Counted from the first letter of the stretch, positions 37,133 to 64,000 are shown. The stretch is 64,000 bases of DNA from Chloroflexota bacterium (GCA_021787395.1 JAJYLZ010000009.1:2639-66638), one strand, 5' to 3'. Numbers and translations: made by a program. Notes: generated by a model from the letters alone, not told the origin.

Positions 37133-37435
37133 TCAGTGGCAGCCGCCGCTGTGCTTCGGCGGAGCGTCGACCTCGCTCACGGGCGCCTGGCCAGGGTCGG
37201 CCGACGCATTCTCGCCCGCGTGCCCCGCATGCCCTCCGTGGCCGCCATGCGCTCCGTGGCCGAAGAGGTGCATGCCGATCATGCCCCCGAACAGCCCGAT
37301 CGTCAGCAGGGACTCCGGCGTCAGGACGCCGAGGTAGAGGAGCGCCGCAGCGACGGCGGCCGCCGCGATCGCCGGGAGCAGCCACCGCGGCCGGCTCCCG
37401 GACCGATGGGCCGTGTCGTCGGCGTTGGTGATCAT
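37133..37435 (-). CDS. DUF2933-like His-rich membrane protein
   Basis: 2 TM, MHLFGHGAHGGHGGH, C-terminal GGCH. Confidence 0.7.
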   Translation of the reverse strand: MITNADDTAHRSGSRPRWLLPAIAAAAVAAALLYLGVLTPESLLTIGLFGGMIGMHLFGHGAHGGHGGHAGHAGENASADPGQAPVSEVDAPPKHSGGCH

Positions 37436-38247
37436 GCGGTTGCCTCCAAGCGCGCTGAGGGGGAGTTGACGAGACGGGCGCGACGCCTCGCCAAGACGGC
37501 GAGGCCGATCCCGGCGATGCCGATCGCGATCCCGATCAGCTGCGCCGTCTTGAGGCCGAGCAGGACGCTCGGCTCGTCGCGCAGGAAGAACAGCACGAAG
37601 CGGATGGACGCCAGCCCGACGAGGTAGGCGGCGGCCAAGGCGCCCGGCACCATGAACGGTTGGCGGCGGAGGGTCCAGAGCACGACGAACAGGCCGAGCA
37701 GCGCGATTGCCTCGTAGGCCTGGGTCGGGTGGAGGGGCGTGCCCAGCGGCGCCATCGCCGCCGGGTTTCGGTAGATCACGGCCCACGGGACCGTCGTCGG
37801 GATGCCGGCGGAGTCGCCGCCGATGAGGCACCCGACGTGGCCGATCGCCTGGCCGACGGCTGCGGCCGGCGCCGCCACGTCAAGGGCGCTCATCCAGCCG
37901 ACGCCTCGCCGACGCGCGAAGACGACCAGAGCCGACGCCCCGGCGACCAGGCCCCCGTAGAACGACAGCCCGCCGGTCCACACCATGAGGAGGTGGACGG
38001 GGTGCGCGGCGAGGTCGGGAAGGCCGTTCTGCAGGGCGTAGAGCAGCCGCCCGCCGGCGAGGGACGCCACGGCAACCCAGAGCACGGCGTCGGCGACGAC
38101 CCCCCCCGGCAGCCTCCGGCGGCGGGCCTCGTGGTCGGCGACCGCAGAGGCGACGAGCATCGCGAGGACCAGCGTCAGGCCGTACCAGCGGATGTCCACA
38201 CCAGCGACCCGGAACGCGACCGGGTCGATGTCGATGACGAAGGGCAC
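37432..38247 (-). CDS. lgt: Prolipoprotein diacylglyceryl transferase family protein
   Basis: IRWYG, GGRL.Y, GGLSFYGG, HPTQAYE. Confidence 0.85.
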   Translation of the reverse strand: MPFVIDIDPVAFRVAGVDIRWYGLTLVLAMLVASAVADHEARRRRLPGGVVADAVLWVAVASLAGGRLLYALQNGLPDLAAHPVHLLMVWTGGLSFYGGLVAGASALVVFARRRGVGWMSALDVAAPAAAVGQAIGHVGCLIGGDSAGIPTTVPWAVIYRNPAAMAPLGTPLHPTQAYEAIALLGLFVVLWTLRRQPFMVPGALAAAYLVGLASIRFVLFFLRDEPSVLLGLKTAQLIGIAIGIAGIGLAVLARRRARLVNSPSARLEATA

Positions 38248-49522: not shown

Positions 49523-50935
49523 TCAGCGCGGGCGTGCCGGGATCGAGATCTCGACGCGGGTGCCCGCCCCGGGCAAGGGGGCGAGCGACATCGTGGCGCC
49601 GTGGGCGTCGGCGATCCAGCGCGCGATCGCGAGGCCGAGGCCCGTCCCCGATGGCCGGAACCCCCGGGCGCGGCGCCCTCGGTAGAGGCGCTCGAACACG
49701 CGCTCCACGTCCTCCGCGTCGATCCCGATGCCGGTGTCGTCGACGGTCACCACCGCGCTGGCGCCGAGGGACTTCAGACGCACGGTCACCGTGCCGCCCG
49801 GAGGCGTGTAGCGCGCTGCGTTGTCGAGCACGATGCCGAACAGCTCCCGGAGGCGGTATGCGTCTCCCTCGACGGTCACGGGCTCGACGGCGGCGACGGT
49901 CATGCGCACGTGCGGCGCGGCCTGCCGCCCCCGGCGGACGGACTCGACCAGGAGCGCGTCGAGCTCGACCGGCTCGAACTCCAGGCGCGCCCCGGACTCG
50001 GCGCGGGCCAGCGACAGCAGGTCGCCGACGAGGCGGCCCATCCGCTCGGCCTCGTCGCGGGCGTCGGTGAGGATGGCCTCGCGCTCGGCCGGGGGCAGGT
50101 CGGGGCGTGCGGCGAGGTCCAGGTTCGCCCGGACCGTCGTCAGGGGCGTCCGGAGCTGGTGCGACGCGTCGGCGAGGAACCGCTGGAGCGTCTGGTGGTT
50201 CTGCTCCAGCGCCTCGAGCATCTCGTTGAACGCCACGGCGAGGTCGCCGATCTCGTCGCCCGGCCGGCCGACGTCGACGCGCGCCGCGAAGTCGCCGGAG
50301 AGCGCGATGGCCCGGGCGGTCTCGGTCACCTCGACAACCGGCGCCAGGGCGCGGCGGGCCAGGAGGAAGCCGCCGACCACGGCCGCGCCGGACACGAGGG
50401 CGCCGCCCGCGACGAGCGCGGCCGCCACCGTGCGGAGGAGGTCGTCGAGGGGCAGCGTCGAGTTGGCCCACGCGACGTAGCCGACGACGCCCCACGTCTG
50501 GTTGGTGATCGTGTGGACCGTGTAGCGGCGGGAGTCGCCCGTCGCGGTCACGAACGGCCGTACTAAGTACGCGTGGGCGTCCGCGGCCGCGAAGTCGGCG
50601 GCGTCGATGGGCGGCGGGGCGGCGCCGGCGGGCGCCGAGTCGGCGATGACCGCGTGGCTGGGGTCGTAGACGACCACACGGCCGCCGGTCGACGCCAGCT
50701 GGTCCACCAGGCGTCCGCTCGGACGGAGCCGGCCCGCGGCGTCCACGTCCTGGGCGAACGCGCCCGCAGCATGCTCGGCGTTCGCGAGGAGGGCCGAGTC
50801 GAACGCCCCGACGAGCTGGCCGCGGAGCAGGACGAAGGTACCACCGCCGAACGCCAGCAGCGCCACGGCCAGCAGCCCGTTGTAGATGAGCGCCAGGCGG
50901 ACCCGGAACGAGGGCCGCGGCCGACGCGTTCTCAC
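49523..50935 (-). CDS. HAMP sensor histidine kinase (MprB/CusS-like)
   Basis: [27 protein letters not shown]. Confidence 0.92.
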
Positions 50936-51612
50936 TCCTTGAGCACGTAGCCCGCGCCGCGGACGGTGTGGATCAGCCTCGACTCTCCGGCGGCCTCGAG
51001 CTTCCCGCGCAGGTACCGGACGTAGACCTCGAGGATGTTGGACTCGCCCTCGAAGTCGTAGGCCCACACGTGGTCCATGATCACCTCCCGGGTGAGGACC
51101 TTGCGCGGGTGGCGCATGAACAGCAGCAGCAGGTTGTACTCGGTCGTCGTGAGTTCGATCGGGCGGTCGCCCCGACGGCCCTCCCGGGCGTCCACGTCGA
51201 GCTCGAGGTCGGCGAAGCGGAGCACCTCGCCAGCTGGCGCGGTCCGGCGGCGCAGCAGCGCGTGCACCCGGGCGAGCAGCTCCTCGAAGCTGAACGGCTT
51301 GACCAGGTAGTCGTCCGCGCCGGTCTCCAGCCCCGCGACGCGGTCCGCGACCTCGTCCCGGGCCGTCAGCATCAGGATCGCGACCTCGTCGCCCGCGGCA
51401 CGCAGTCGGCGCGTGACCTCGAGGCCATCGAGACCCGGCATCATGACGTCGAGGACGACGAGCTGGGGCAGGTGCTCTCGCGCCTTCTCGAGGCCCTCCT
51501 CGCCCGACGCGGCCTCGACCACCCGGTACCCCTCGTACGCCAGCCCGCGGCGGACGACGGTGCGGATCTTTGGGTCGTCGTCGACGACGAGGACGCGGAC
51601 GGGGTCAGCCAT
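50932..51612 (-). CDS. OmpR-family response regulator (MprA-like)
   Basis: [38 protein letters not shown]. Confidence 0.93.
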
Positions 51613-51712
51613 GGCGGCGGGCGGCCTCCAAATCTTCGTGCGCCGCGAGACCGGCGGCTTCTCGCCGGGTACCAGCATCCTACGACGTCAGCCGGACGGT
51701 GACCTCTACGCC

Positions 51713-51738
51713 TGAGAGCCACCTGAGTGCCTGCTGAG
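51713..51738 (-). promoter_or_regulatory. 11-bp-period operator array (class A) upstream of the response regulator
   Basis: TGAG at 51713, 51724, 51735. Confidence 0.6.
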
Positions 51739-51952: not shown

Positions 51953-52699
51953 TCACGCCAGCGGGCCGACTCCGATGTGGCAGGCAGCAAGGAGGGCGAC
52001 ATACGCCGCGATCGGCAGCCACTCGAACGGCAGGGCTCGCCGGCGGTCGCTCCGGCCCGCCGACGCGGCGCCCACCAACCACTCGATACGCCTGACTGGA
52101 TCCGCCGCGAACGACGTACCGCCAGTGTCCAGCCAGTCCGTCTTGAGGAGCGCGCGCGCCACGGTGGCCCGGCTCGACCCGGCATCGATGGCCGCGCGGT
52201 CCGCCTCGATCTCGAGGTCCGAGAGGCGGCGGGCGGCGGCGTCTCGCACTGGACGAAACGGCCGGAGCAGGGTCGCCCACGCCTCGAGCGCCGCCGCATG
52301 CATCGGAGCCCGCGTCTTGCGGTGATGCTCCTCGTGGCGCAGCACCGCGAGAAGCTCGTCGGCCTGGAGGTCCGCGAGCAGTCCGGCGCCAATGTAGACG
52401 TTGGGGCGCAGCCAGCCGAGCACGAAGGCGTGTCGCCCGCCGCCATCGACGAGCAGGAATCGGACCCCCGCGACCTCCATCGTGCTCGCATGGGAGTCGA
52501 GCGCCCTGCGGAGGCGCTCGTCGCGAACGACGATCCGCAGACCAAGCACCGCCCAAGTGGCGACCGCGAGGGCGCCACCCACCTCAGGCGCGCGCAACGG
52601 ATCGCCGGAGGCGTGCGTCAGGGCGTCGGCGCACCACGCGCCGATCGCCACCGCCAGCCCGAACGCGGCCAGGAGCGCGACGGCCAGTCGCCGGTTCAC
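51953..52699 (-). CDS. M56/M48-family (BlaR1-like) membrane metallopeptidase
   Basis: AVLRHEEHH, EIEAD, ARALLK. Confidence 0.8.
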   Translation of the reverse strand: MNRRLAVALLAAFGLAVAIGAWCADALTHASGDPLRAPEVGGALAVATWAVLGLRIVVRDERLRRALDSHASTMEVAGVRFLLVDGGGRHAFVLGWLRPNVYIGAGLLADLQADELLAVLRHEEHHRKTRAPMHAAALEAWATLLRPFRPVRDAAARRLSDLEIEADRAAIDAGSSRATVARALLKTDWLDTGGTSFAADPVRRIEWLVGAASAGRSDRRRALPFEWLPIAAYVALLAACHIGVGPLA

Positions 52700-53109
52700 G
52701 GGGGCCCGCCGCCGGCGAGGCGGACGAGCTCCGCCCGGAGCTCCGGGTCGAGTTCGCCGAGCCTCTCGCCGAACTGGCGGACGGCGGCCGAGCCGTAGCG
52801 GGCGAGGACGGCGTCGACGGCCTGTCCCGCGAGCGCATCGACCGAGGCCGGCTCGTCGCCGGCGGGGCGGTACACGTAGCCGCGCCCGACCTTCGTCCGC
52901 TCCACCAGTCCGCGGTCGTGGAGGCGGACGAGGATGGTCATGACGGTGGTGTACGCCAGCTGGCGCGGCTGCTCGCGGTTGATGTGCGCCACGACGTCGG
53001 CGACGCTCGAAGGCCCGCGGTCCCACAGGACGCGCATGACCGCCGACGCGAGCGGGCCGAGCATCGATGCCACGCCGGGCTCCCCTAGGCGTTGCTCCTC
53101 CGGCTCCAT
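52696..53109 (-). CDS. BlaI/MecI/CopY-family repressor
   Basis: LGPL...VM..LW, LAYTTVMTILVRL..RGLV.R. Confidence 0.92.
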   Translation of the reverse strand: MEPEEQRLGEPGVASMLGPLASAVMRVLWDRGPSSVADVVAHINREQPRQLAYTTVMTILVRLHDRGLVERTKVGRGYVYRPAGDEPASVDALAGQAVDAVLARYGSAAVRQFGERLGELDPELRAELVRLAGGGPP

Positions 53110-53181
53110 CGGCCGACCATACCACGGCGCACCTCGGATGGCGGCGGCGCGGGCCAGGTGCAGGTCAGGCGAAGGCCGATA

Positions 53182-53199
53182 TACTACGGCCCTGTCGTA
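53182..53199. promoter_or_regulatory. BlaI-type operator
   Basis: TACTAC-GGCCCT-GTCGTA; related sites at 56825, 56912, 59002. Confidence 0.7.
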
Positions 53200-53728
53200 T
53201 GTCGGTGCTGAGTCCTACTGTCCCCTCGCCCGATCCCATCCCCTCCTCGCGTTCCGGAGTGCCCCTCGTCGAGCTCTCCCAGGCGACCAAGGTGTGCGGC
53301 GCCACGGTCGCCATATGGCGCGTCGACCTCCAGCTGCATGCCGGCGAGGGCGTTGGGATCGTCGGGGCAACGGCTCCGGGAAGACCACCCTGCTCCGAGC
53401 GGTCGCGGGGGTGCTGGAGCTCGACGCCGGCGCCCGTGATGCCGCACCCTCGTTGAAGGCCCACCCTGTTGGGGCACCGGTTAGGGCTGTTCGACGACCT
53501 CACCGTCCTCGAGAGCCTCCGCCTCTTCGACCACACGCGCAGCGGCGGCCCAGGGCGAGCGAGCCATCTCCTTTCGAGGCTGAGGCTGGACGACGTCGCG
53601 CACGCCCGGGTCTCGTCCCTGTCCGCAGACACGCGCCGCCGTGCCGGACTCGCACGGGCACTGGCCACCAACCCCGAACTGCTCGTGCTGGACGAGCCGT
53701 TCGCGTCGGTGGACGCCGAACACGCGTC
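53199..53728 (+). pseudogene. ABC-transporter ATPase (CcmA-like) remnant
   Basis: Walker A GNGSGKTT and LLVLDEP lie in different frames; truncated. Confidence 0.7.
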
Positions 53729-53968
53729 GACCTGGCAGGCGGCGAGCGCGAGCAGCGCGTACTCGACCGGGTTGGGGGCGGTGTCCGCGCCGCCGAGCGA
53801 GGGCGGCTCGTCCACCCCGAGCTCGAACGAGCGGATCCGCGCGTCGCTGCGCAGGGCGGCCGTCTGGCGGCTGGTCACGCGCAAGGTGTGGACGCTGGCG
53901 CCCTCGGGCGCGGCGGCGAGGGCCTCGCGGGTGGCGGCCACGAGCGGGGCGAAGGCGAACTCGGTCAT
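53726..53968 (-). pseudogene. OsmC-family protein, N-terminal fragment
   Basis: VDEPPSLGGADTAPNPVEYALLALAACQ then abrupt loss of homology. Confidence 0.7.
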
Positions 53969-54463
53969 GGGGTCTGATCTCCCAGGGGTGCGTCGTTGAA
54001 GGCGTACGGGTGGGAGGTCCCGGCCGGGTGCAGTGGTTCCGGCGGCAGGCCGTCGCATTCGTCCTGAGGAGCGATGGGCCGCAGCCTTGGCTGCGTTCTC
54101 GGGACCTCGGCCCGAGGCCAGGCGCGGTCAGCGACCGGCCGCGCGCCCTCGGGCCCCGTCCTCAGCGCGGCGGGGCCGCCGGCGCATACACATCATCCCC
54201 GCGGAGCGGCCGGGCGAGCTCGTGGGCGGACGGTACGAGCCTGACGGGTTGCGGTCAAGGAGCCGTTCGGTGCCGAGTTGGGTTCGGTCGCCAGGCTCTC
54301 CAGATGGGGTGCTCTACCCGGTTCCGGGTGTCGGCCGCGCCACGCAATCTTGACCGGCGAACGGCCTGCGCCGATCGAGCTCGCCAGGGCCGCGATCGTC
54401 ACGTCGGGGGCGCCGGCGGCCTGCTCGGCCCCCCGCGGCGCCCGCACCCCATGTGGCGGCCGA

Positions 54464-54955
54464 CTACGTCTCGGCGTCGGCCAGGTCGAGTTCCGCGGCG
54501 GCGACGACCCGCGAGCATGGGCTGCATCGCCCCACGACCGTCAGGTGGGAGAGGTTGACCACGAACCCCCGCGCTGCCGTCAGCGCTTCGGTCAGCGCCG
54601 CGGCTTCGGCTCCGCTGATATCCCAGGTCCCGCCGCACGCCTCGCAGCGCAGGTGGCCGTGCACGGACTCGGGCAGCACGTGGTATTCCTCGACTCCGTC
54701 GTGGCCGTGGGAATGGCGCACCAGCCCGAGCTCCTCGAGGGCGTCGAGGCTCCGGTAGACGGTTGAGGGCGTCGTGTCGGGGTCGACCGCCCGGCAGCGC
54801 TCGACGAGCTCGGAGCCGGTCACGTGGCCCTGCGCGGAGAGGAGCACTTCGACGAGCACCCGCCGCTGCGGCGTCCAGCGCATGCCGCTCGCCCGCAGGC
54901 GCGCCCTCGCCCTCTCGACCGCACTCTCTTCTCGGTGGCTGGCTGGCTGGCTCAT
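54464..54955 (-). CDS. Fur-family regulator (Nur/Zur-like)
   Basis: RWTPQR, STVYRSL, HSHGH, HGHLRCEACG, CSPC. Confidence 0.9.
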   Translation of the reverse strand: MSQPASHREESAVERARARLRASGMRWTPQRRVLVEVLLSAQGHVTGSELVERCRAVDPDTTPSTVYRSLDALEELGLVRHSHGHDGVEEYHVLPESVHGHLRCEACGGTWDISGAEAAALTEALTAARGFVVNLSHLTVVGRCSPCSRVVAAAELDLADAET

Positions 54956-55083
54956 CGCACCCGGCATCCTACGGCTCTCCTAACCGGCAGCTTACCGCGG
55001 CGCAGATGCCACGGAGGACAGATGCAACACGGCGCGTTAGGATGCCCCCTGACCCCACCGACCCTCGTCCCAGGGAGCCGTTC

Positions 55084-56160
55084 ATGCTGTCGCACCTCCG
55101 CCGTCTGCTCGACGCGTCCCCCAGCCTGCGGCGACGGGTCGTCGTGGTGTACGTCTTCCTGCTGTGCTTCAACGTCGCCGCGTGGGGCCTGGCCCTCGCG
55201 GCGTCCGCGGCCTACCCGATCCTGCTGCCGACAGCGTTCCTCGCCTACACGTTCGGCCTACGGCACGCCGTGGACGCGGACCACATCGCGGCGATCGACA
55301 ACTCGACCCGCAAGCTGATGCAGGACGGGCAGCGCCCCGTCGCGGTCGGGACGTTCTTCTCGCTCGGCCACTCGACCGTCGTCGTCGCCCTGTCGGTGCT
55401 CGTCGCCGTCTTCGCCGGCGCGGTGAGCGGGATCCCGGCGGCGCAGCGGATCGGCGGCCTGATCGGGACCGGGGTCTCCGCGACGTTCCTCCTCGTGATC
55501 GGCGTCATCAACCTGGTCGTGCTGCTCGACATCTGGCGGATGTTCCGGGAGGTCCGCGAGGGCGGCGAGTACAGCGAGGAGAGCCTCGAGGACTTCCTCG
55601 ACAGCCGCGGCCTCCTGGCGCGGCTCCTGCGGCCCGCGCTGCGGCTGATCCGGCGGAGCTGGCACATGTACCCGCTCGGCTTCCTGTTCGGCCTCGGGTT
55701 CGACACCGCGTCCGAGGTGGCGCTCCTCGGACTGGCGGCCACCTCCGGGGCCGGCGGCGTCCCGGTCGGCTACATCCTGATCCTGCCCGCGCTCTTCGCG
55801 GCGGGCATGTGCACCGTCGACTCCACCGACGGGATCCTGATGCTCGGTGCCTACGGCTGGGCCTATGTCAAGCCCATCCGCAAGCTGTATTACAACCTCA
55901 ACATCACCTTTGTGTCGGTGGTGATCGCCTTCATCATCGGCGGCATCGAGGTCCTGAGCATCATCGCGAACCAGTTCGGGCTGACCGGCGGGATCTGGGA
56001 CGTCGTCACAGGACTCGACTTCGGGCTGATCGGCCTCGGGATCATCGTGGTGTTCGCGGCGAGCTGGATCCTGTCAACGCTCGTGTACCGCTGGAAGGGC
56101 TACGACGACCTGCTCGCCGCGGCGCATCCGGCCATGGGGACGGGCGGCGACGCCTCCTGA
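55084..56160 (+). CDS. HoxN/HupN/NixA nickel/cobalt transporter (NiCoT)
   Basis: RHAVDADHIAAIDN, FSLGHSTVV, LFGLGFDTASE. Confidence 0.95.
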   Translation: MLSHLRRLLDASPSLRRRVVVVYVFLLCFNVAAWGLALAASAAYPILLPTAFLAYTFGLRHAVDADHIAAIDNSTRKLMQDGQRPVAVGTFFSLGHSTVVVALSVLVAVFAGAVSGIPAAQRIGGLIGTGVSATFLLVIGVINLVVLLDIWRMFREVREGGEYSEESLEDFLDSRGLLARLLRPALRLIRRSWHMYPLGFLFGLGFDTASEVALLGLAATSGAGGVPVGYILILPALFAAGMCTVDSTDGILMLGAYGWAYVKPIRKLYYNLNITFVSVVIAFIIGGIEVLSIIANQFGLTGGIWDVVTGLDFGLIGLGIIVVFAASWILSTLVYRWKGYDDLLAAAHPAMGTGGDAS

Positions 56161-56333
56161 CGCCCAGCCCCCGCTGCCACTCGCGCCGGCGGCGCACAAG
56201 GCGGGCGTTCCCGGATTCCCGGATCGTGACCACCAATCCGCGTGCCGGCAATCCACAGGCCTGTCTCAGCCTGCGCTCATGTGCGCGTCGATCATCGGCC
56301 CTAGCGATGGTCGGGACGGCAGGAGTTCACGCA

Positions 56334-56777
56334 GTGCTTGAGCAGACATTCGGGCCGATGGGCCGCTGGGCCGAGGATCCCCGGGCGATCACGGTCGCCG
56401 TCGAGTCGATCCCGCTCGTCCGGGCCGCCTTCGAGTCTCTCGTGGCGACGGTCCCAGGGATCCGTCTGGCCTCCGCTGGCCCCGACCACCGGGCGACCAC
56501 GCCGATGGTCGTGCTCGAGGTGGATGTGGGCCAGGGACGGTCCTCGGATGATGGGACGCGTGCTCCCGCCCCGCGGGCCAACGTGCTCCGGCTCGCGCCC
56601 CAATGGGAACCGCGGGACGCGCTGCGGGCTGTTCAGGACGGGGCGGTCGGCTGCCTGACGACCGGCGCCTCGGTCGCCGACCTCGCGACTGCGATCCGCC
56701 GAGTGGCGCGGGGCGAGGTGACGCTGCCGCCAGGCGTTGACGGCGCCGCGCAGTGGGGCCAGCCCATCGGCCGCTGA
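56334..56777 (+). pseudogene. Degenerate NarL-type receiver fragment without HTH
   Basis: LVRAAF...ALRAVQDGAVGCL...DLATAIRRVARGE; class A array at 56254-56279. Confidence 0.45.
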
Positions 56778-56824
56778 CCATCCCCGCTGCGGCCGGCTTC
56801 GCCCGGGCCCTCCCCGAACGCTTG

Positions 56825-56929
56825 TACGACAGCGCTGTAGTAGCATCGCGCCAGCGAGCTCGACTCGCCCGCCTCCGCGCCAAGCGGCGCGACCAGCTCG
56901 CCCGCCACGAATACGACATATGTGTAGCA
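56825..56929. promoter_or_regulatory. Two BlaI-type operators
   Basis: TACGAC-AGCGCT-GTAGTA (56825) and TACGAC-ATATGT-GTAGCA (56912). Confidence 0.7.
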
Positions 56930-56983
56930 GGTTGGCGGCGGCGGCCCGTTCAACCGCAGCACGCTAGAGCTAGAGAGAAGCAG

Positions 56984-58171
56984 ATGTCCTCCCGGAGCAA
57001 CCGAGCGTCAGGGCGCGCACGGCGCCCCAAGACCGCGGGCGAACGGCGGTCCTCGCCTCCGGCCGTGCCTTCCGGTGTCGCAGCCGCGGGCGCGGGGATC
57101 GTAGCCGATCCCCCTGGCGCCACGGCCGACCAGCCGAGAGTGGAGCCGGCTGCCCTCGTCGTCTCCCACTGGTTCGAGTCGGGCCCCGCAGGCGGACCCC
57201 GGTACGACGCCACCATCCGGGTCGTGGGCCGGCGGCGCGGCGTGGACGCGGGGAGGGCCGGCCCGGGCGACTCGTTCTCGGTGTCCGAGGCCGTCCAGGG
57301 GGTCGTGCCGGGCTCCGGTCCCGTCGCGGCGACCAGCTGGGTCTACGGGGTGACCGCCGGGGACTGGGACGTGAGCGCCGAGCTCGTTGGGCCCGAGCGC
57401 GCCCGCCAGGCGAACGGCGGCGGCCGGGTTCACCGCGCCGGCTGGTCGTGGCGGCGCTGGACGGTCGAGTCGGCGCCCGACGCCCCGGTCTCCACCCGCT
57501 GGGCGCCGATCGCCCCGCTCGCGGCGAGCCCGGTGGTGGCCCCGGGGAGCTTCACCGTCCTCGCCGCCGTTGCGCTGGCCGCCGCCATCGGGCTCGAGCC
57601 GGCGTTCCTCGCCCACCACCGCCTCGATGTCGGCAGCGCCCTCGTCGCGTCCGTCCTCGGCGCGGCGCTGGGCCTGGCCGGGGCGAAGGCTTGGTACATG
57701 GCCCTCAAGGGCTTCTCGCGCGCGACCCTCCGCGAGGGTTGGTCGGTAGACGGCTTCCTGATCGCGGCGCCCGTCGCGGCCTCGATCGTGGCTGTCGTCC
57801 TCGGGGAGCCCCTCGGCGCGTTCCTCGACGCGGTCACCCCGGGCCTGTTCGTCGCCGTCGCGATCGGGCGGATCGGCTGCTTCTTCACCGGCTGCTGCGC
57901 CGGGCGAACGACGGCCGGCTGGGGGATCTGGTCCTCCGACAGACGCGTCGCTGCCCGCCGGGTCCCCACACAGCTGCTCGAGTCGCTGACCGGGGCCGCC
58001 CTCGCCGCGGTCTCGACCGCCGTGGTGCTCGGCCGCGTCGCATACGGGTCGGGTCTGGTGTTCGCGGCGACGATCGTGGCCTACGTGGTGGCGCGGCAGG
58101 GGCTGCTACGCCTCCGCGCGGAGTCGCGGCCGTTCTCGTGGCGGCGCGCCGCGCCCGCACGGACCGGGTAG
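56984..58171 (+). CDS. Lgt-like protein with N-terminal soluble extension
   Basis: GAKAWY, IGRIGCFFTGCCAG, WSSD, RVPTQLLES. Confidence 0.75.
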   Translation: MSSRSNRASGRARRPKTAGERRSSPPAVPSGVAAAGAGIVADPPGATADQPRVEPAALVVSHWFESGPAGGPRYDATIRVVGRRRGVDAGRAGPGDSFSVSEAVQGVVPGSGPVAATSWVYGVTAGDWDVSAELVGPERARQANGGGRVHRAGWSWRRWTVESAPDAPVSTRWAPIAPLAASPVVAPGSFTVLAAVALAAAIGLEPAFLAHHRLDVGSALVASVLGAALGLAGAKAWYMALKGFSRATLREGWSVDGFLIAAPVAASIVAVVLGEPLGAFLDAVTPGLFVAVAIGRIGCFFTGCCAGRTTAGWGIWSSDRRVAARRVPTQLLESLTGAALAAVSTAVVLGRVAYGSGLVFAATIVAYVVARQGLLRLRAESRPFSWRRAAPARTG

Positions 58172-58226
58172 CCGCGCCGGGGCTGGAAACGCCGCAGGCG
58201 GGACGAGGGGGCGACGCAGCGGCTGT

Positions 58227-58916
58227 TCAGGTCCCGTCAGGCACCGTGGGCCCGATCGCCCGCTCGGGCCAGTGGCCGCGCCGCTCCTTGACCAGCTGGC
58301 CGAGCTTCATCATCCCGTAGGTCAGGCCCTCCGGCCGGGGCGGGCAGCCAGGGACGTAGACGTCGACCGGCAGGAGCCGGTCGATGCCCTGGATCGTGGA
58401 GTAGGAGCGCTTGTAGCGGCCGCCCGAGCAGGTGCAGTCGCCCATGGCCACGCACCACTTCGGCTCGGGCATCTGCTCCCACAGGCGGACGAGCGGGCCG
58501 GCCATCTTGGTCGTCAGGGTGCCGGCCACGATCAGGACGTCGGCCTGTCGCGGGCTGGCGCGGAACGGGAACATGCCCCAGCGGTCCATATCGTTGCAGC
58601 TGCAGGCCGCCGACATCATCTCGATCGCGCAGCAGGCGAGGCCCGACAGCAGCGGCCAGAGGCTGTTCATGCGGATCAGGTCGATCAGGATGTCGGCCTT
58701 GGTCGGGATCACGTCCAGCTGGCCCCAGCGTGCCGTGTCCGCCAGCACGAGGTCCGAGCCCTCGAGCTCGCGGAGGTGCGTGGAGGCGGGCGCGGTGCCC
58801 TGGTAGGCGCCCGGCCGGACCGTGGACCACAGCGTGTTGGGGACGACGATCGGCTCGGCTCGGGCGTCGCGCCCGGAGTCTGCCGTGGCGATCAACCGGC
58901 GGGGCGGCTCGTCCAT
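58227..58916 (-). CDS. nuoB: Stand-alone NuoB-family 4Fe-4S protein
   Basis: GLACCAIEM, RASPRQAD, MPEPKW..AMGDC, VDVYVPGCPPRPE. Confidence 0.92.
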   Translation of the reverse strand: MDEPPRRLIATADSGRDARAEPIVVPNTLWSTVRPGAYQGTAPASTHLRELEGSDLVLADTARWGQLDVIPTKADILIDLIRMNSLWPLLSGLACCAIEMMSAACSCNDMDRWGMFPFRASPRQADVLIVAGTLTTKMAGPLVRLWEQMPEPKWCVAMGDCTCSGGRYKRSYSTIQGIDRLLPVDVYVPGCPPRPEGLTYGMMKLGQLVKERRGHWPERAIGPTVPDGT

Positions 58917-59001
58917 GCGGCGTGGTCCTCCTGAGCCACAAGCCCCGCGCGCTGCGGTCCGGGCTCCTATCACCGTGTGGTGCGCGAGGGTTCCCCGATG
59001 T

Positions 59002-59019
59002 TACGACAGGCGTGTAGTT
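59002..59019. promoter_or_regulatory. BlaI-type operator upstream of nuoB
   Basis: TACGAC-AGGCGT-GTAGTT. Confidence 0.65.
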
Positions 59020-59057
59020 GTTGTCCGGGCCATACCCGATCGCGATCGCCCATGGGG

Positions 59058-59300
59058 TCAGCCGTCACCGGGCGCGACCGGGACTCCGCCGAGCCTGACG
59101 ATCGCGGCGAGGTCGGCGACCCCGACCACGAGCGGGTCGTAGTCGATGATGAGCAGGCGCCCCTCTCTGGCGGTCACCGCCCGGTAGATGCCCGGGTGGG
59201 CCTCGAGCAGGCGCTCGTACCGGCGGTCACTCGTCCGCGCGTCGGTGCTGACCGGGACGTGGGCGCGGAACCCCCGGACCGGTCGGCGCTGCCGCGTCAT
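59058..59300 (-). CDS. Small hypothetical protein (HMA-like fold without CxxC)
   Basis: RBS GGAGGAGG; PGIYRA...IDYDP. Confidence 0.5.
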   Translation of the reverse strand: MTRQRRPVRGFRAHVPVSTDARTSDRRYERLLEAHPGIYRAVTAREGRLLIIDYDPLVVGVADLAAIVRLGGVPVAPGDG

Positions 59301-59641
59301 GAGCCTCCTCCCCTGGCGGTGCTCGAGCGCGTGGGGTCGCCCGATCCGGTCCCACCCGTCGCCCCGGTTGCTGCACGGGGCGTCATCCCGCCCGCACCCA
59401 GGCCGACGAGGCGCTTGCGCTCATGGCGGCGCGAATCGAGCCCATCGGTTTCAGCGTCCACCAGCGATGCTGATCATGAACCGAGGCTGGCCGCGGCTGA
59501 TGAATCCAGAGTGAGCCGCGGATGAGACTTCCGGTCCCATTCGGCACCGCCCGCCTGCTTCCGTCCGGCGCGGGACCTCCGCGTCGGCTCGGATCAGCTG
59601 GCCGACACGGTCGGGAGCTGGTCCGGCGCGCCGCCGAGGCG

Positions 59642-61122: not shown

Positions 61123-61383
61123 GTGTGCTGCCTCCTGCGGTGCTGTCGTTGATGACGACCGGACAGCCGCCCGGGGTCATCCACGGTTGAGAGCGTCGCT
61201 CGTTCGAGTTAGCCGGCGGTGAACCCGCGCTGAGGTCCTGCTGAGAACGGGGGAGCCATGGCCGTGCGCAACCCCGGCCTCTCAGGCGTAGCTCACCTGT
61301 CCCTCAGGCCACGGACCGATGCTGCACGCGTGAAGGGCCGATACGTGCGCCTGGGCTCCACGTTGGGCGTCGCTCAGCACGCC

Positions 61384-62948: not shown

Positions 62949-64000
62949 TCACGCCGCGCCATAGCGGCGGATCCCCTCGAGCTTGGTGCGCTTCAGGAGC
63001 AGGGCGTTGACGGCCACCAGGAGCGAGCTGCCGGCCATGCTGATGGCGGCAATCTCCGGGCTCAGGAGCAGCCCGATCGAGGGGTAGAGGAGGCCCATCG
63101 CGATCGGGAAGGCGACGGTGTTGTAGCCGACCGCCCAGAACAGGTTCTGGCGCATCTTCCGGACCGTCGCGCGCGACAGCGCGATCGCGCCCAGGACGTC
63201 GAGCGGGTCGCTCTTCATCAGCACGACGTCGGCCGTCTCGACCGCCACGTCGGCGCCCGCGCCGATCGCGATCCCGACGTCGGCCTGGGCGAGCGCCGGC
63301 GCGTCGTTGATCCCGTCACCGACCATGGCCGCGAGCTTGCCGGCCGCCTGGAGCTCCCTGACCTTGTCGGCCTTCTGGCCGGGCAGGACCTCGGCAAACA
63401 CCGTGTCGAGGCCGAGCTCGGTGGCGATCCGTTCGGCCGTCGCGCGGTTGTCGCCCGTCAGCATGGCGACCTCGATGCCGAGGTTGTGCAGCCGGCCGAT
63501 CGCCTCTTTCGCGCCCGGGCGCACCGCATCCGCGATCGCGATCAGGCCAGCCGCCTCGTCGTCGATGGCGACCCGCACGACCGTCCGCCCGGACCCCTCG
63601 AGGTCGGCGGCTCGTGATGCCAGGGCGTCGAACGGCATCTCCCGATCGCGCATCAGCTTGGCGTTGCCGACGAGGACGGCCCGGCCGTCGACGCGGGCCT
63701 CGAGGCCGTGGCCCGGGATCGCCCGGAAGTCGGCGGCATCGGTCAGCGCCAGGCCGCGCTCCCGGGCGGCGTCGACGACCGCCGCGCCGAGCGGGTGCTC
63801 GCTCGAGGCCTCGGCCGAGGCCGCGAGGCGGAGGAGCTCGTCCTCGCCGACCGGGTTCGCGCTCGCGACGAGATCGACGACGCGCGGCTGGCCGACGGTG
63901 AGGGTGCCGGTCTTGTCGAAGATCACCGCGCCGACCTTCGAGGCCTGCTCGAGCGCGGTCGCGTTCTTGAACAGGATGCCGTTGAGGGCTCCCAGGCCGG
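62949..64000 (-). CDS. Heavy-metal (Cu) P1B ATPase, 3' part (truncated by window end)
   Basis: DKTGT, SEHP, GDGINDAP, YN, MAGSS. Confidence 0.92.
   Translation of the reverse strand, partial: GLGALNGILFKNATALEQASKVGAVIFDKTGTLTVGQPRVVDLVASANPVGEDELLRLAASAEASSEHPLGAAVVDAARERGLALTDAADFRAIPGHGLEARVDGRAVLVGNAKLMRDREMPFDALASRAADLEGSGRTVVRVAIDDEAAGLIAIADAVRPGAKEAIGRLHNLGIEVAMLTGDNRATAERIATELGLDTVFAEVLPGQKADKVRELQAAGKLAAMVGDGINDAPALAQADVGIAIGAGADVAVETADVVLMKSDPLDVLGAIALSRATVRKMRQNLFWAVGYNTVAFPIAMGLLYPSIGLLLSPEIAAISMAGSSLLVAVNALLLKRTKLEGIRRYGAA

Follow-up and report, generated by a model that had tools for sequence, protein, structure and literature searches.

A BlaI–M56 switch at an eroded gene supercluster of a Limnocylindria bacterium and its predicted regulon, with a stand-alone NuoB as a candidate member

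We have analyzed a BlaI-type repressor gene, and the M56-type membrane protease gene that follows it, in a 64,000-nucleotide stretch of DNA from a Chloroflexota bacterium (GCA_021787395.1 JAJYLZ010000009.1:2639-66638; G000:C72:2639-66638), hereafter called the window, from a genome (G000) of 3.45 Mb with 73.8% G+C in 96 contigs. Names on the closest homologues place the host in the class Candidatus Limnocylindria. The locus is a second, eroded copy of a gene supercluster that is conserved in Limnocylindria and combines cytochrome c maturation (ccm) genes, a dyad, the blaI-M56 pair, a nuoA..N-like cluster, a response regulator and a kinase. We favor, with somewhat more confidence than doubt, the interpretation that the pair controls its own expression and that of an Lgt-like membrane protein, a copper ATPase and a stand-alone NuoB, and that this NuoB is an inducible isoform of the N2-cluster subunit of complex I, into which it would assemble.

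Results

The dyad pattern TAC(G/T)AC-N6-GT(A/C)G(T/C)(A/T), which an earlier sequence-only reading of this DNA had located at 53182, 56825, 56912 and 59002, matches in the window at exactly these four sites, with six strand matches where 0.02 were expected and fewer than six in every one of 100 shuffles. Operator 1 (TACTACGGCCCTGTCGTA, 53182..53199) lies 73 nucleotides (nt) upstream of blaI, and its final base coincides with the A of the ATG of a ccmA remnant. Operators 2 (TACGACAGCGCTGTAGTA, 56825..56842) and 3 (TACGACATATGTGTAGCA, 56912..56929) are found 142 and 55 nt upstream of the ATG of the Lgt-like gene, and operator 4 (TACGACAGGCGTGTAGTT, 59002..59019) lies between a gene of 80 amino acids (aa), whose stop codon it follows by 39 nt, and nuoB, whose ATG it precedes by 86 nt. 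Operator 5 is situated ~1.5 kb past the window end (65490-65507 in window coordinates), 64 nt upstream of the copper ATPase gene, and a sixth genomic site, a perfect dyad, lies between ccmA and a second blaI (C17:114362). Read in a single orientation, the four window sites are TACGACAGGGCCGTAGTA, TACGACAGCGCTGTAGTA, TACGACATATGTGTAGCA and TACGACAGGCGTGTAGTT, and their alignment gives an 18-bp palindrome, TAC(G/T)ACAG-N2-CTGT(A/C)GTA, a motif similar to the mycobacterial BlaI operator. Operator 1 places such a site in the repressor's own promoter, as does the perfect site before the paralogous blaI on C17.

When the genome was scanned at a threshold of at least 11 of the 12 specified bases, 18 matches were obtained, against 3 in the reversed genome. 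The extended consensus (TACGACA...GTAGT) is present in six of them, all intergenic, and the remaining 12 are GACGAC-type stretches, all within coding frames. The dyad also recurs in relatives: among 16 related M56 loci, fetched from named Limnocylindria assemblies, 13 carry at least one dyad at this threshold, and, of the 11 loci that include the blaI upstream region, 8 have a dyad immediately before blaI. This recurrence fits the sequence-only reading, which had taken the dyads to be targets of the BlaI/M56 system, and we predict that they are operators of the BlaI-family repressor. Dyad spacing seems to vary between paralogous systems: in the orthologous blaI/ccmA operator of the sister genome G061 (G061:C85, L055, ~850-870) one extra C gives TACTAC-N7-GTCGTA, and a third, more distant BlaI-like gene of G000, which adjoins another Lgt-like paralogue, has two sites with the same half-sites and likewise N7 spacing (C17:57292-57340).

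The blaI gene (52696..53109, minus strand) encodes a cysteine-free winged-helix repressor of 137 aa from the BlaI/MecI family (PF03965, 79.8 bits against a cut-off of 22.6). Its best solved relative, 2g9w, which we take to be Rv1846c, aligns with it over residues 15-134, and the LAYTTVM segment of the recognition helix is common to both. Directly after blaI, whose stop codon overlaps the GTG start codon as GTGA, comes the gene for a putative BlaR-like, sensor-less M56-type metalloprotease of 248 aa with an HEEHH motif (51953..52699, minus strand). The protein scores 27.3 bits with PF05569, below the cut-off of 31, and 21.7 against 20.3 with PF01435; no solved relative was found by sequence search. 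As the earlier reading had stated, a penicillin-binding sensor is lacking: no Pfam match to a penicillin-binding (transpeptidase) domain was obtained in the 248 aa, and the protein ends in a transmembrane helix. Its extracytoplasmic part is minimal, a loop of ~18 residues. Alignment of 15 Limnocylindria relatives showed that a short GDP...E loop, an HE-x-HH-R-x-T-x-AP block, of which HE-x-HH is invariant, and a P-x-EW motif are kept, together with a Cys close to where the first transmembrane helix (TM1) ends on the outer side (15/15) and, at the outer terminus of the last helix, a Cys-His (14/15).

In the mechanism that we propose, BlaI would bind the dyads and repress the genes behind them, and the co-translated M56 protein, a BlaR without the penicillin-binding domain, would probably remove BlaI by cleavage. 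The pair remaining on the contig would most likely control itself, the Lgt-like cysteine-rich membrane protein, the copper ATPase and the stand-alone NuoB.

A fuller arrangement is seen at a paralogous locus on contig C17, where a redoxin gene (CcmG-like), ccmF, ccmE, ccmC, ccmB and ccmA lie on one strand and are followed by the perfect dyad, beyond which the other strand carries blaI, M56, nuoA, a gene for a protein of 437 aa and then nuoH, J, K, L, M and N. G061 carries the ccm/blaI-M56/nuo-like arrangement twice; its window-type copy (BlaI 83% identical), which is divided between two contigs overlapping by 248 bp at 99.6% identity, runs OsmC ... ccmF-ccmA, dyad, blaI-M56, nuoA..nuoN, response regulator, kinase. 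Among the 16 related loci, ccm genes are found beside the pair in 5, the nuo-like cluster or part of it in 3 and the regulator-kinase pair in 4. Cytochrome c maturation and a complex-I-like membrane module make up the wider conserved content of the regulon.

In the window, ccmA is a pseudogene (53199..53723, plus strand) with two frame changes around Walker A, which leave the Walker A segment out of frame, an in-frame stop codon (53454-53456) and an end at about codon 171 of 229; an intact paralogue is present on C17 and an intact orthologue on G061:C85. The intact 'ABC ATPase' that the sequence-only reading had listed as a target is this pseudogene. The remnant abuts an inverted 5′ fragment of an OsmC gene (53732..53968, minus strand; codons 1-79 of 172, 87% identical to the C17 copy), which forms the other edge of the ccmB-ccmG deletion, and this junction points to a deletion of roughly 7 kb. 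Between the window M56 gene and the response regulator, no trace of the nuo-like cluster is left.

Where the complex-I-like operon is intact, directly after blaI-M56, it contains no nuoB, C, D or I (G000:C17:115940-124212, L011 7941 onward; L076 920-9209; L077 11044-19316). The 437-aa protein encoded in it has one cysteine and no cluster cysteines, and matches NuoB weakly over residues 47-87 (E-value 1.7e-4) and the C-terminal part of NuoD weakly over residues 309-423 (E-value 7e-4); its AlphaFold model has a predicted local distance difference test score (pLDDT) of 39.5. Given the single cysteine and the two weak matches, it is probably a cofactor-less NuoB/NuoD fusion.

The stand-alone nuoB of the window (58227..58916, minus strand) encodes a complex-I-type NuoB of 229 aa (PF01058, 92.5 bits; TIGR01957, 211.9 against 142.7) with a Cys-Ser-Cys motif (AACSCND). 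It had been described earlier as keeping its Fe-S cysteines and as standing apart from other nuo or hydrogenase genes, and both points hold: all four N2 cysteines (CC, GDC, GCPP) align with those of the canonical copy and of solved NuoB/NDUFS7, and PF00346, PF00146 and PF00374 have no match on the contig. The genome encodes six Oxidored_q6 genes, of which one belongs to a full nuo operon (C1), one to a second, complex-I-like or hydrogenase-like set (C7), three adjoin [NiFe]-hydrogenase large subunits, and the sixth is the window copy. Because the canonical operon on C1 has its own nuoB, the window gene is not the only copy, stranded by the splitting of a nuo operon. In 19 of 19 relatives the best NuoB match is flanked by nuoA and nuoC, whereas the window copy is flanked by neither. 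Window and C1 NuoB are 86% identical in protein and 88.6% in DNA over 614 nt, and the likeness ends at the edges of the coding core. The phylogeny against complex I copies that the sequence-only reading had proposed as a check, here a 40-row DNA tree, nests the window gene in the genus clade of canonical NuoB, with an end branch of 0.13 against a median of 0.05. Its synonymous distance (dS) is lowest to the resident C1 copy (0.25), with a ratio of nonsynonymous to synonymous distance (dN/dS) of 0.34; for canonical nuoB this ratio is 0.05-0.11 in close pairs and 0.15 on average over all pairs. A blastn search with the region upstream of nuoB (58840-59320) against the genome and the fetched loci returned only the self-match.

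The window NuoB deviates at seven positions that are invariant in 16 canonical copies. The change from T-S-K to C-S-C involves 8 changes in 9 adjacent bases and also creates a 10-bp palindrome (TGCAGCTGCA). The added cysteines, C84 and C86, follow the tandem N2 cysteines by 10 and 12 residues, and align with the A and the R of AAPRYDMDRFG in mouse NDUFS7. That C86 occupies the position of the hydroxylated arginine of NDUFS7 was considered and rejected, since that arginine lies in FRASPRQ and is conserved in the window NuoB. A candidate second orphan nuoB in G012:C40 (89% identity) turned out to belong to a canonical nuoB-C-D-H fragment.

A second stand-alone copy does exist. Whereas an exact 36-mer of the window nuoB had no match in metagenome contigs, a search with a degenerate C-S-C motif found one unrelated metagenome contig, L116. 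Its NuoB, of 230 aa, is 80% identical to the window copy, and nuoA and nuoC are absent beside the gene. The two proteins have in common C84, C86, Q155 and a short M-(D/Q)-(E/D)-P-P N-terminus, and their genes the AGC codon for the intervening serine. A dyad (AACTACGCCGCAGTCGTA) lies 175 nt upstream of the L116 nuoB, adjoining a P1B-ATPase fragment, and a strong Shine-Dalgarno sequence precedes both stand-alone genes. Between the two cores dN is 0.100, dS 0.644 and dN/dS 0.16; both copies are under purifying selection.

Alternatively, the orphan NuoB could function apart from complex I, either as a decoy or as a free Fe-S protein that senses redox state or metals through the extra cysteines. 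Such a role would accord with its location in a copper island, with the missing nuo neighbors and with two derived cysteines so close to the tandem cluster cysteines, and yet we hold it to be improbable: an uninterrupted core stretch of more than 100 residues is the same in both copies and near-identical in canonical NuoB, including regions of subunit contact in solved complexes, a conservation that a free sensor would not need, and the protein carries neither a partner domain nor a regulator output. Another possibility is that the orphan is the missing Fe-S subunit of the BlaI-linked nuoA..N cluster on C17, so that the operon would in effect be split. That cluster lacks nuoB, C, D and I, its 437-aa protein is only weakly NuoB/NuoD-like and has no cluster cysteines, and cluster and orphan fall in the same predicted regulon. 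In G061, however, two clusters of this kind are present while an orphan NuoB is missing, so that the orphan is not obligatory for them; as a recent offshoot of canonical NuoB (86% identical and nested), and not a line of descent shared in evolution with the second cluster, the orphan is very unlikely to have this function. The preferred interpretation of the orphan is an isoform that would still assemble into complex I.

The Lgt-like gene (56984..58171, plus strand) encodes a membrane protein of 395 aa with GRIGCFFTGCCAGR, in which a cytoplasmic beta-sandwich is joined to a membrane domain of the Lgt fold. It passes PF01790 (59.5 bits against 24.9), and it does not reach equivalog level, the best NCBIfam Lgt model giving 47 bits against a cut-off of 334. 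The structural model (pLDDT 81) consists of a disordered basic N-terminus, a confident beta-sandwich (56-165) and a six-helix membrane domain, the N-terminal part being ~150 aa long; its top fold match is E. coli Lgt (5azb) with a probability of 1.00, but with an E-value of 1.9e-3 and template modeling scores of 0.32-0.43. For the N-terminal domain, a Protein Atlas search returned no usable match. The protein has IGRIGCFFTGCCAGR; the motif GCFFTGCCAG follows the conserved Arg, at places where E. coli Lgt presumably has Asn and Glu, and GR-x-GCF-x-TGCCAGR is kept across 20 members of the family. Both the motif and the extra soluble domain had been noticed in the sequence-only reading. The family is large, with 519 proteins in Limnocylindria at an E-value of at most 0.001, and four of the nine LGT-family genes of the genome are of this type.

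An upstream dyad was found in 5 of the 10 Lgt-like copies examined in five genomes (window, G061:C50, G007, L079 and L080), in keeping with the link between this gene and BlaI/M56 that had been proposed earlier, and this recurrence makes the Lgt-like gene the most recurrent distal target. Directly upstream of operators 2 and 3 lies a gene for a 147-aa protein without family match (56334..56777, plus strand), and the order 147-aa gene, dyad, Lgt-like gene is also kept in G061:C50. Besides the four Lgt-like genes, LGT-family genes are located at C2:104284, C17:77564, C72:40133 (window 37432-38247), C17:139574 and C2:93242; a 271-aa LGT copy in the window carries GHVGCLIGGDSAG after the conserved region and scores just below the cut-off of TIGR00544 (114.9 against 118.9).

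A second set of repeats runs through the same DNA. CTCAG boxes with 11-nt phasing occur 17 times in the window (26483-61307; at most one mismatch), against 5.0 expected. Three of them (51712..51738, minus strand) precede the response regulator gene, phased boxes (56254..56280, plus strand) precede the 147-aa gene upstream of the Lgt-like gene, and others are located at 61230-61245 and before a unit of DUF5676 and geranylgeranyl-reductase-like (GGR) genes upstream of nuoB. In the ATPase promoter a triple box stands directly before operator 5 (L010 4180-4215, minus strand). The boxes before the response regulator gene are probably that regulator's own site and would define a second regulon of the island, and the distribution of the boxes suggests that the regulon of this MprA-like regulator is interlaced with that of BlaI. 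Since boxes are found at BlaI targets, these targets may be activated by the island regulator and gated by BlaI.

As to the signal, we infer copper or envelope thiol stress, sensed at the outer face of the membrane via the TM1 Cys and the Cys-His of the last helix of M56. This proposal draws on these residues, on the metal-handling island, on the ATPase target, on the ccm genes, cytochrome c assembly having been reported as a target of copper (PMC4600104), and on the dyad-flanked genes of relatives, which include DUF305, a PCYCGC protein, a DsbA-like thioredoxin and an ArsR-CDF pair. We hold it to be improbable that the pair, like classical BlaR1-BlaI, responds to a signal of the cell-wall or beta-lactam type and that the metal genes are mere neighbors. 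The family membership of both proteins, the envelope location of the Lgt-like target and the MprA-like envelope-stress boxes in the same island would all suit such a signal, but the penicillin-binding domain is absent, no beta-lactamase is found among the dyad-flanked genes, and M56 proteins without that domain are the majority of the family, only ~6% carrying it (PMC13492132).

The window as a whole is a metal-handling island. Pfam matches identify three P1B-type ATPases, four YHS proteins, five cupredoxin-type proteins, HMA domains, a DsbD-like protein, an ArsR-CDF pair and a Fur-NiCoT pair. The sequencing runs tied to the best DNA match for the organism are labeled as mine drainage metagenome, which fits a metal-rich habitat and proves nothing; no RNA dataset was among the matches listed, and three metatranscriptome runs contained next to none of the sequence words searched for. 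Only the 3′ part of the copper P1B-type ATPase gene behind operator 5 lies in the window (62949..64000, minus strand), the whole gene extending to window coordinate 65426 (L010 1588-4065). The protein passes TIGR01511 (copper ATPases), begins with a His/Met-rich segment instead of an HMA domain, and carries the membrane motif CPD, compared with CPC in the neighboring ATPase. Downstream of M56, and identified with Pfam, lie the genes for an MprA-like response regulator of the OmpR family (50932..51678, minus strand) and, as second gene of the two-component pair, a histidine kinase with HAMP, HisKA and HATPase_c domains (49523..50935, minus strand). The regulator is 92% identical to the one that ends the intact supercluster on L076, and in L076, L078, L082 and L083 the regulator-kinase pair comes after blaI-M56 or after the nuo-like cluster. 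The Fur-family regulator and NiCoT nickel/cobalt transporter genes, which are divergent and free of dyads, occupy the space between the BlaI locus and the Lgt-like gene (54464-56160), a position also kept in G061:C50. In that contig (L056, 7328-8771) a GGR fragment (residues 1-191) followed by a NuoL/N-like C-terminal fragment lies beside the Fur-NiCoT pair and the Lgt-like gene, a further sign that the region is a rearrangement hotspot.

Discussion

The interpretation of the sequence-only reading survives in part. A BlaI/M56 regulon with the Lgt-like gene and nuoB, set in a metal island, is supported, and the ABC ATPase and copper sensing of the CopY type are not. To its further proposal, that a spare NuoB would counter metal damage to Fe-S clusters or act as a redox sensor, it can be added that the copy is conserved, under selection and equipped with a derived CxC.

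Several observations weigh against the regulon and the NuoB isoform as we picture them. Operators 3 and 4 match 11 of the 12 specified bases, not all 12. No promoter-like site was found between 52900 and 59400 in a scan with the sigma-70 consensus, which is uninformative for this phylum. The BlaI-M56 pair itself is patchy in the genus (3 of 40 other genomes), and the case for a copper or thiol signal is circumstantial, being built from neighborhood and conserved residues only. NuoB with the CxC motif was found in none of the 400 other genomes of the class, which marks it as a marginal accessory gene and not as a general part of the regulon, and it is absent from G061, in which the regulon is present. 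The mutation to C-S-C could have been templated and later merely tolerated. Finally, a free tree leaves the two stand-alone nuoB genes apart; a clade of the two is nevertheless not rejected (P-value of the approximately unbiased test 0.49), the constrained tree being 0.34 log units better.

The nuoB copy could instead be a passenger without a role of its own, a duplicate that came to lie behind an operator in a rearrangement-prone island; true membership of the regulon would then be limited to the Lgt-like gene, the ATPase gene and the ccm genes. We judge this unlikely but deserving of serious weight. It would explain why CxC NuoB was found in 1 of 401 genomes of the class and one metagenome contig and is missing from the sister genome; gene remnants abound in this DNA (the ccmA and OsmC stumps, the GGR and NuoL fragments in G061:C50), the dN/dS of the copy relative to the resident gene is raised above that of close canonical pairs, and the palindrome in the Cys-Ser-Cys codons is producible by template switch. 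Against a passenger speaks the comparison of the two stand-alone genes, which at ~82% DNA identity keep the frame, the four cluster cysteines, CxC and Q155, with a dN/dS like that of canonical pairs, and which both have an upstream dyad and a strong Shine-Dalgarno sequence. We read these data as one old duplication of a complex I nuoB, which would have been kept under purifying selection behind a BlaI-type operator and would later have undergone exchange with the resident copy in G000. The function of the NuoB as an inducible isoform is a hypothesis founded on this conserved and selected paralogue.

How does the system compare with known ones? For almost no sensor-less BlaIR switch has a signal or a regulon been described (PMC13492132). 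Mycobacterial BlaI-BlaR (Rv1846c/Rv1845c) and M. abscessus BlaRI likewise pair BlaI with an M56 protein without penicillin-binding domain. The genes atpH and sigC are reported as members of the mycobacterial BlaI regulon (PMC8265638), Rv1303, which is co-transcribed with the atp operons, is repressed (PMC12565901), and M. abscessus BlaRI is linked to energy metabolism (PMC13492132). Energy-metabolism targets would be a feature of both systems, here in another phylum and with a different set: cytochrome c maturation, the complex-I-like module, the Lgt-like protein, the copper ATPase and the NuoB isoform, and neither ATP synthase nor beta-lactamase. CenIR of Clostridioides difficile is also a repressor with an M56 protein that lacks the transpeptidase domain, and has a small envelope regulon (PMC13492132); CenR, however, has a C-terminal region of its own, whereas the window protease has the ~18-residue loop and Cys...Cys-His in membrane helices.

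CopY/TcrY repressors belong to the same DNA-binding family and act on an inverted repeat to control a copper P1B ATPase, and CopY senses Cu(I) via a C-terminal CxCx4CxC (PMC11672702). The window BlaI, in contrast, has a protease partner and no cysteine in its 137 aa, and it does not pass the CopY/TcrY model TIGR02698 (38.2 bits, cut-off 121.95), so it is not a direct copper sensor of the CopY type; the analogy with CopY drawn in the earlier reading has to be given up on this point. From classical BlaR1 the window protein differs by the absent sensor domain and by an M56 score below the Pfam cut-off; the system as a whole belongs to the BlaIR family by repressor domain, operator and gene order. 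Its novelty lies in the phylum, in the set of targets and in the NuoB isoform. Stress-regulated paralogue replacement is known from other systems, for example the Zur-controlled ribosomal protein paralogues, in which a second copy of a core subunit is placed under a stress repressor; unlike in that type of replacement, the window NuoB keeps its cofactor ligands. In a limited literature search, no stand-alone nuoB paralogue or stress-regulated copy of a complex I core subunit turned up.

A wider and more speculative view, which we rate as distinctly improbable, is that in Limnocylindria a minimal protease of the BlaR type senses copper or the oxidation of thiols and releases a refit of the respiratory chain, comprising ccm, the cofactor-less complex-I-like module, the Lgt-like protein, the copper pump and, in some species, an alternative N2 subunit whose Cys-x-Cys alters how complex I copes with metal or redox stress. 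On this view, the NuoB would be the first stress-switched isoform of a core Fe-S subunit of complex I.

With the preferred interpretation, the locus offers a compact and computable regulon in a new phylum, in which a BlaIR-type switch would be tied to respiratory-chain biogenesis and copper handling, in parallel to the mycobacterial link with energy metabolism. The Cys and Cys-His of M56 are a concrete candidate sensing site. The stand-alone NuoB, a natural variant of the N2 subunit that is conserved, selected, equipped with two extra cysteines and predicted to have its own regulated promoter, would be an object on which the swapping of complex I subunits under stress may be tested.

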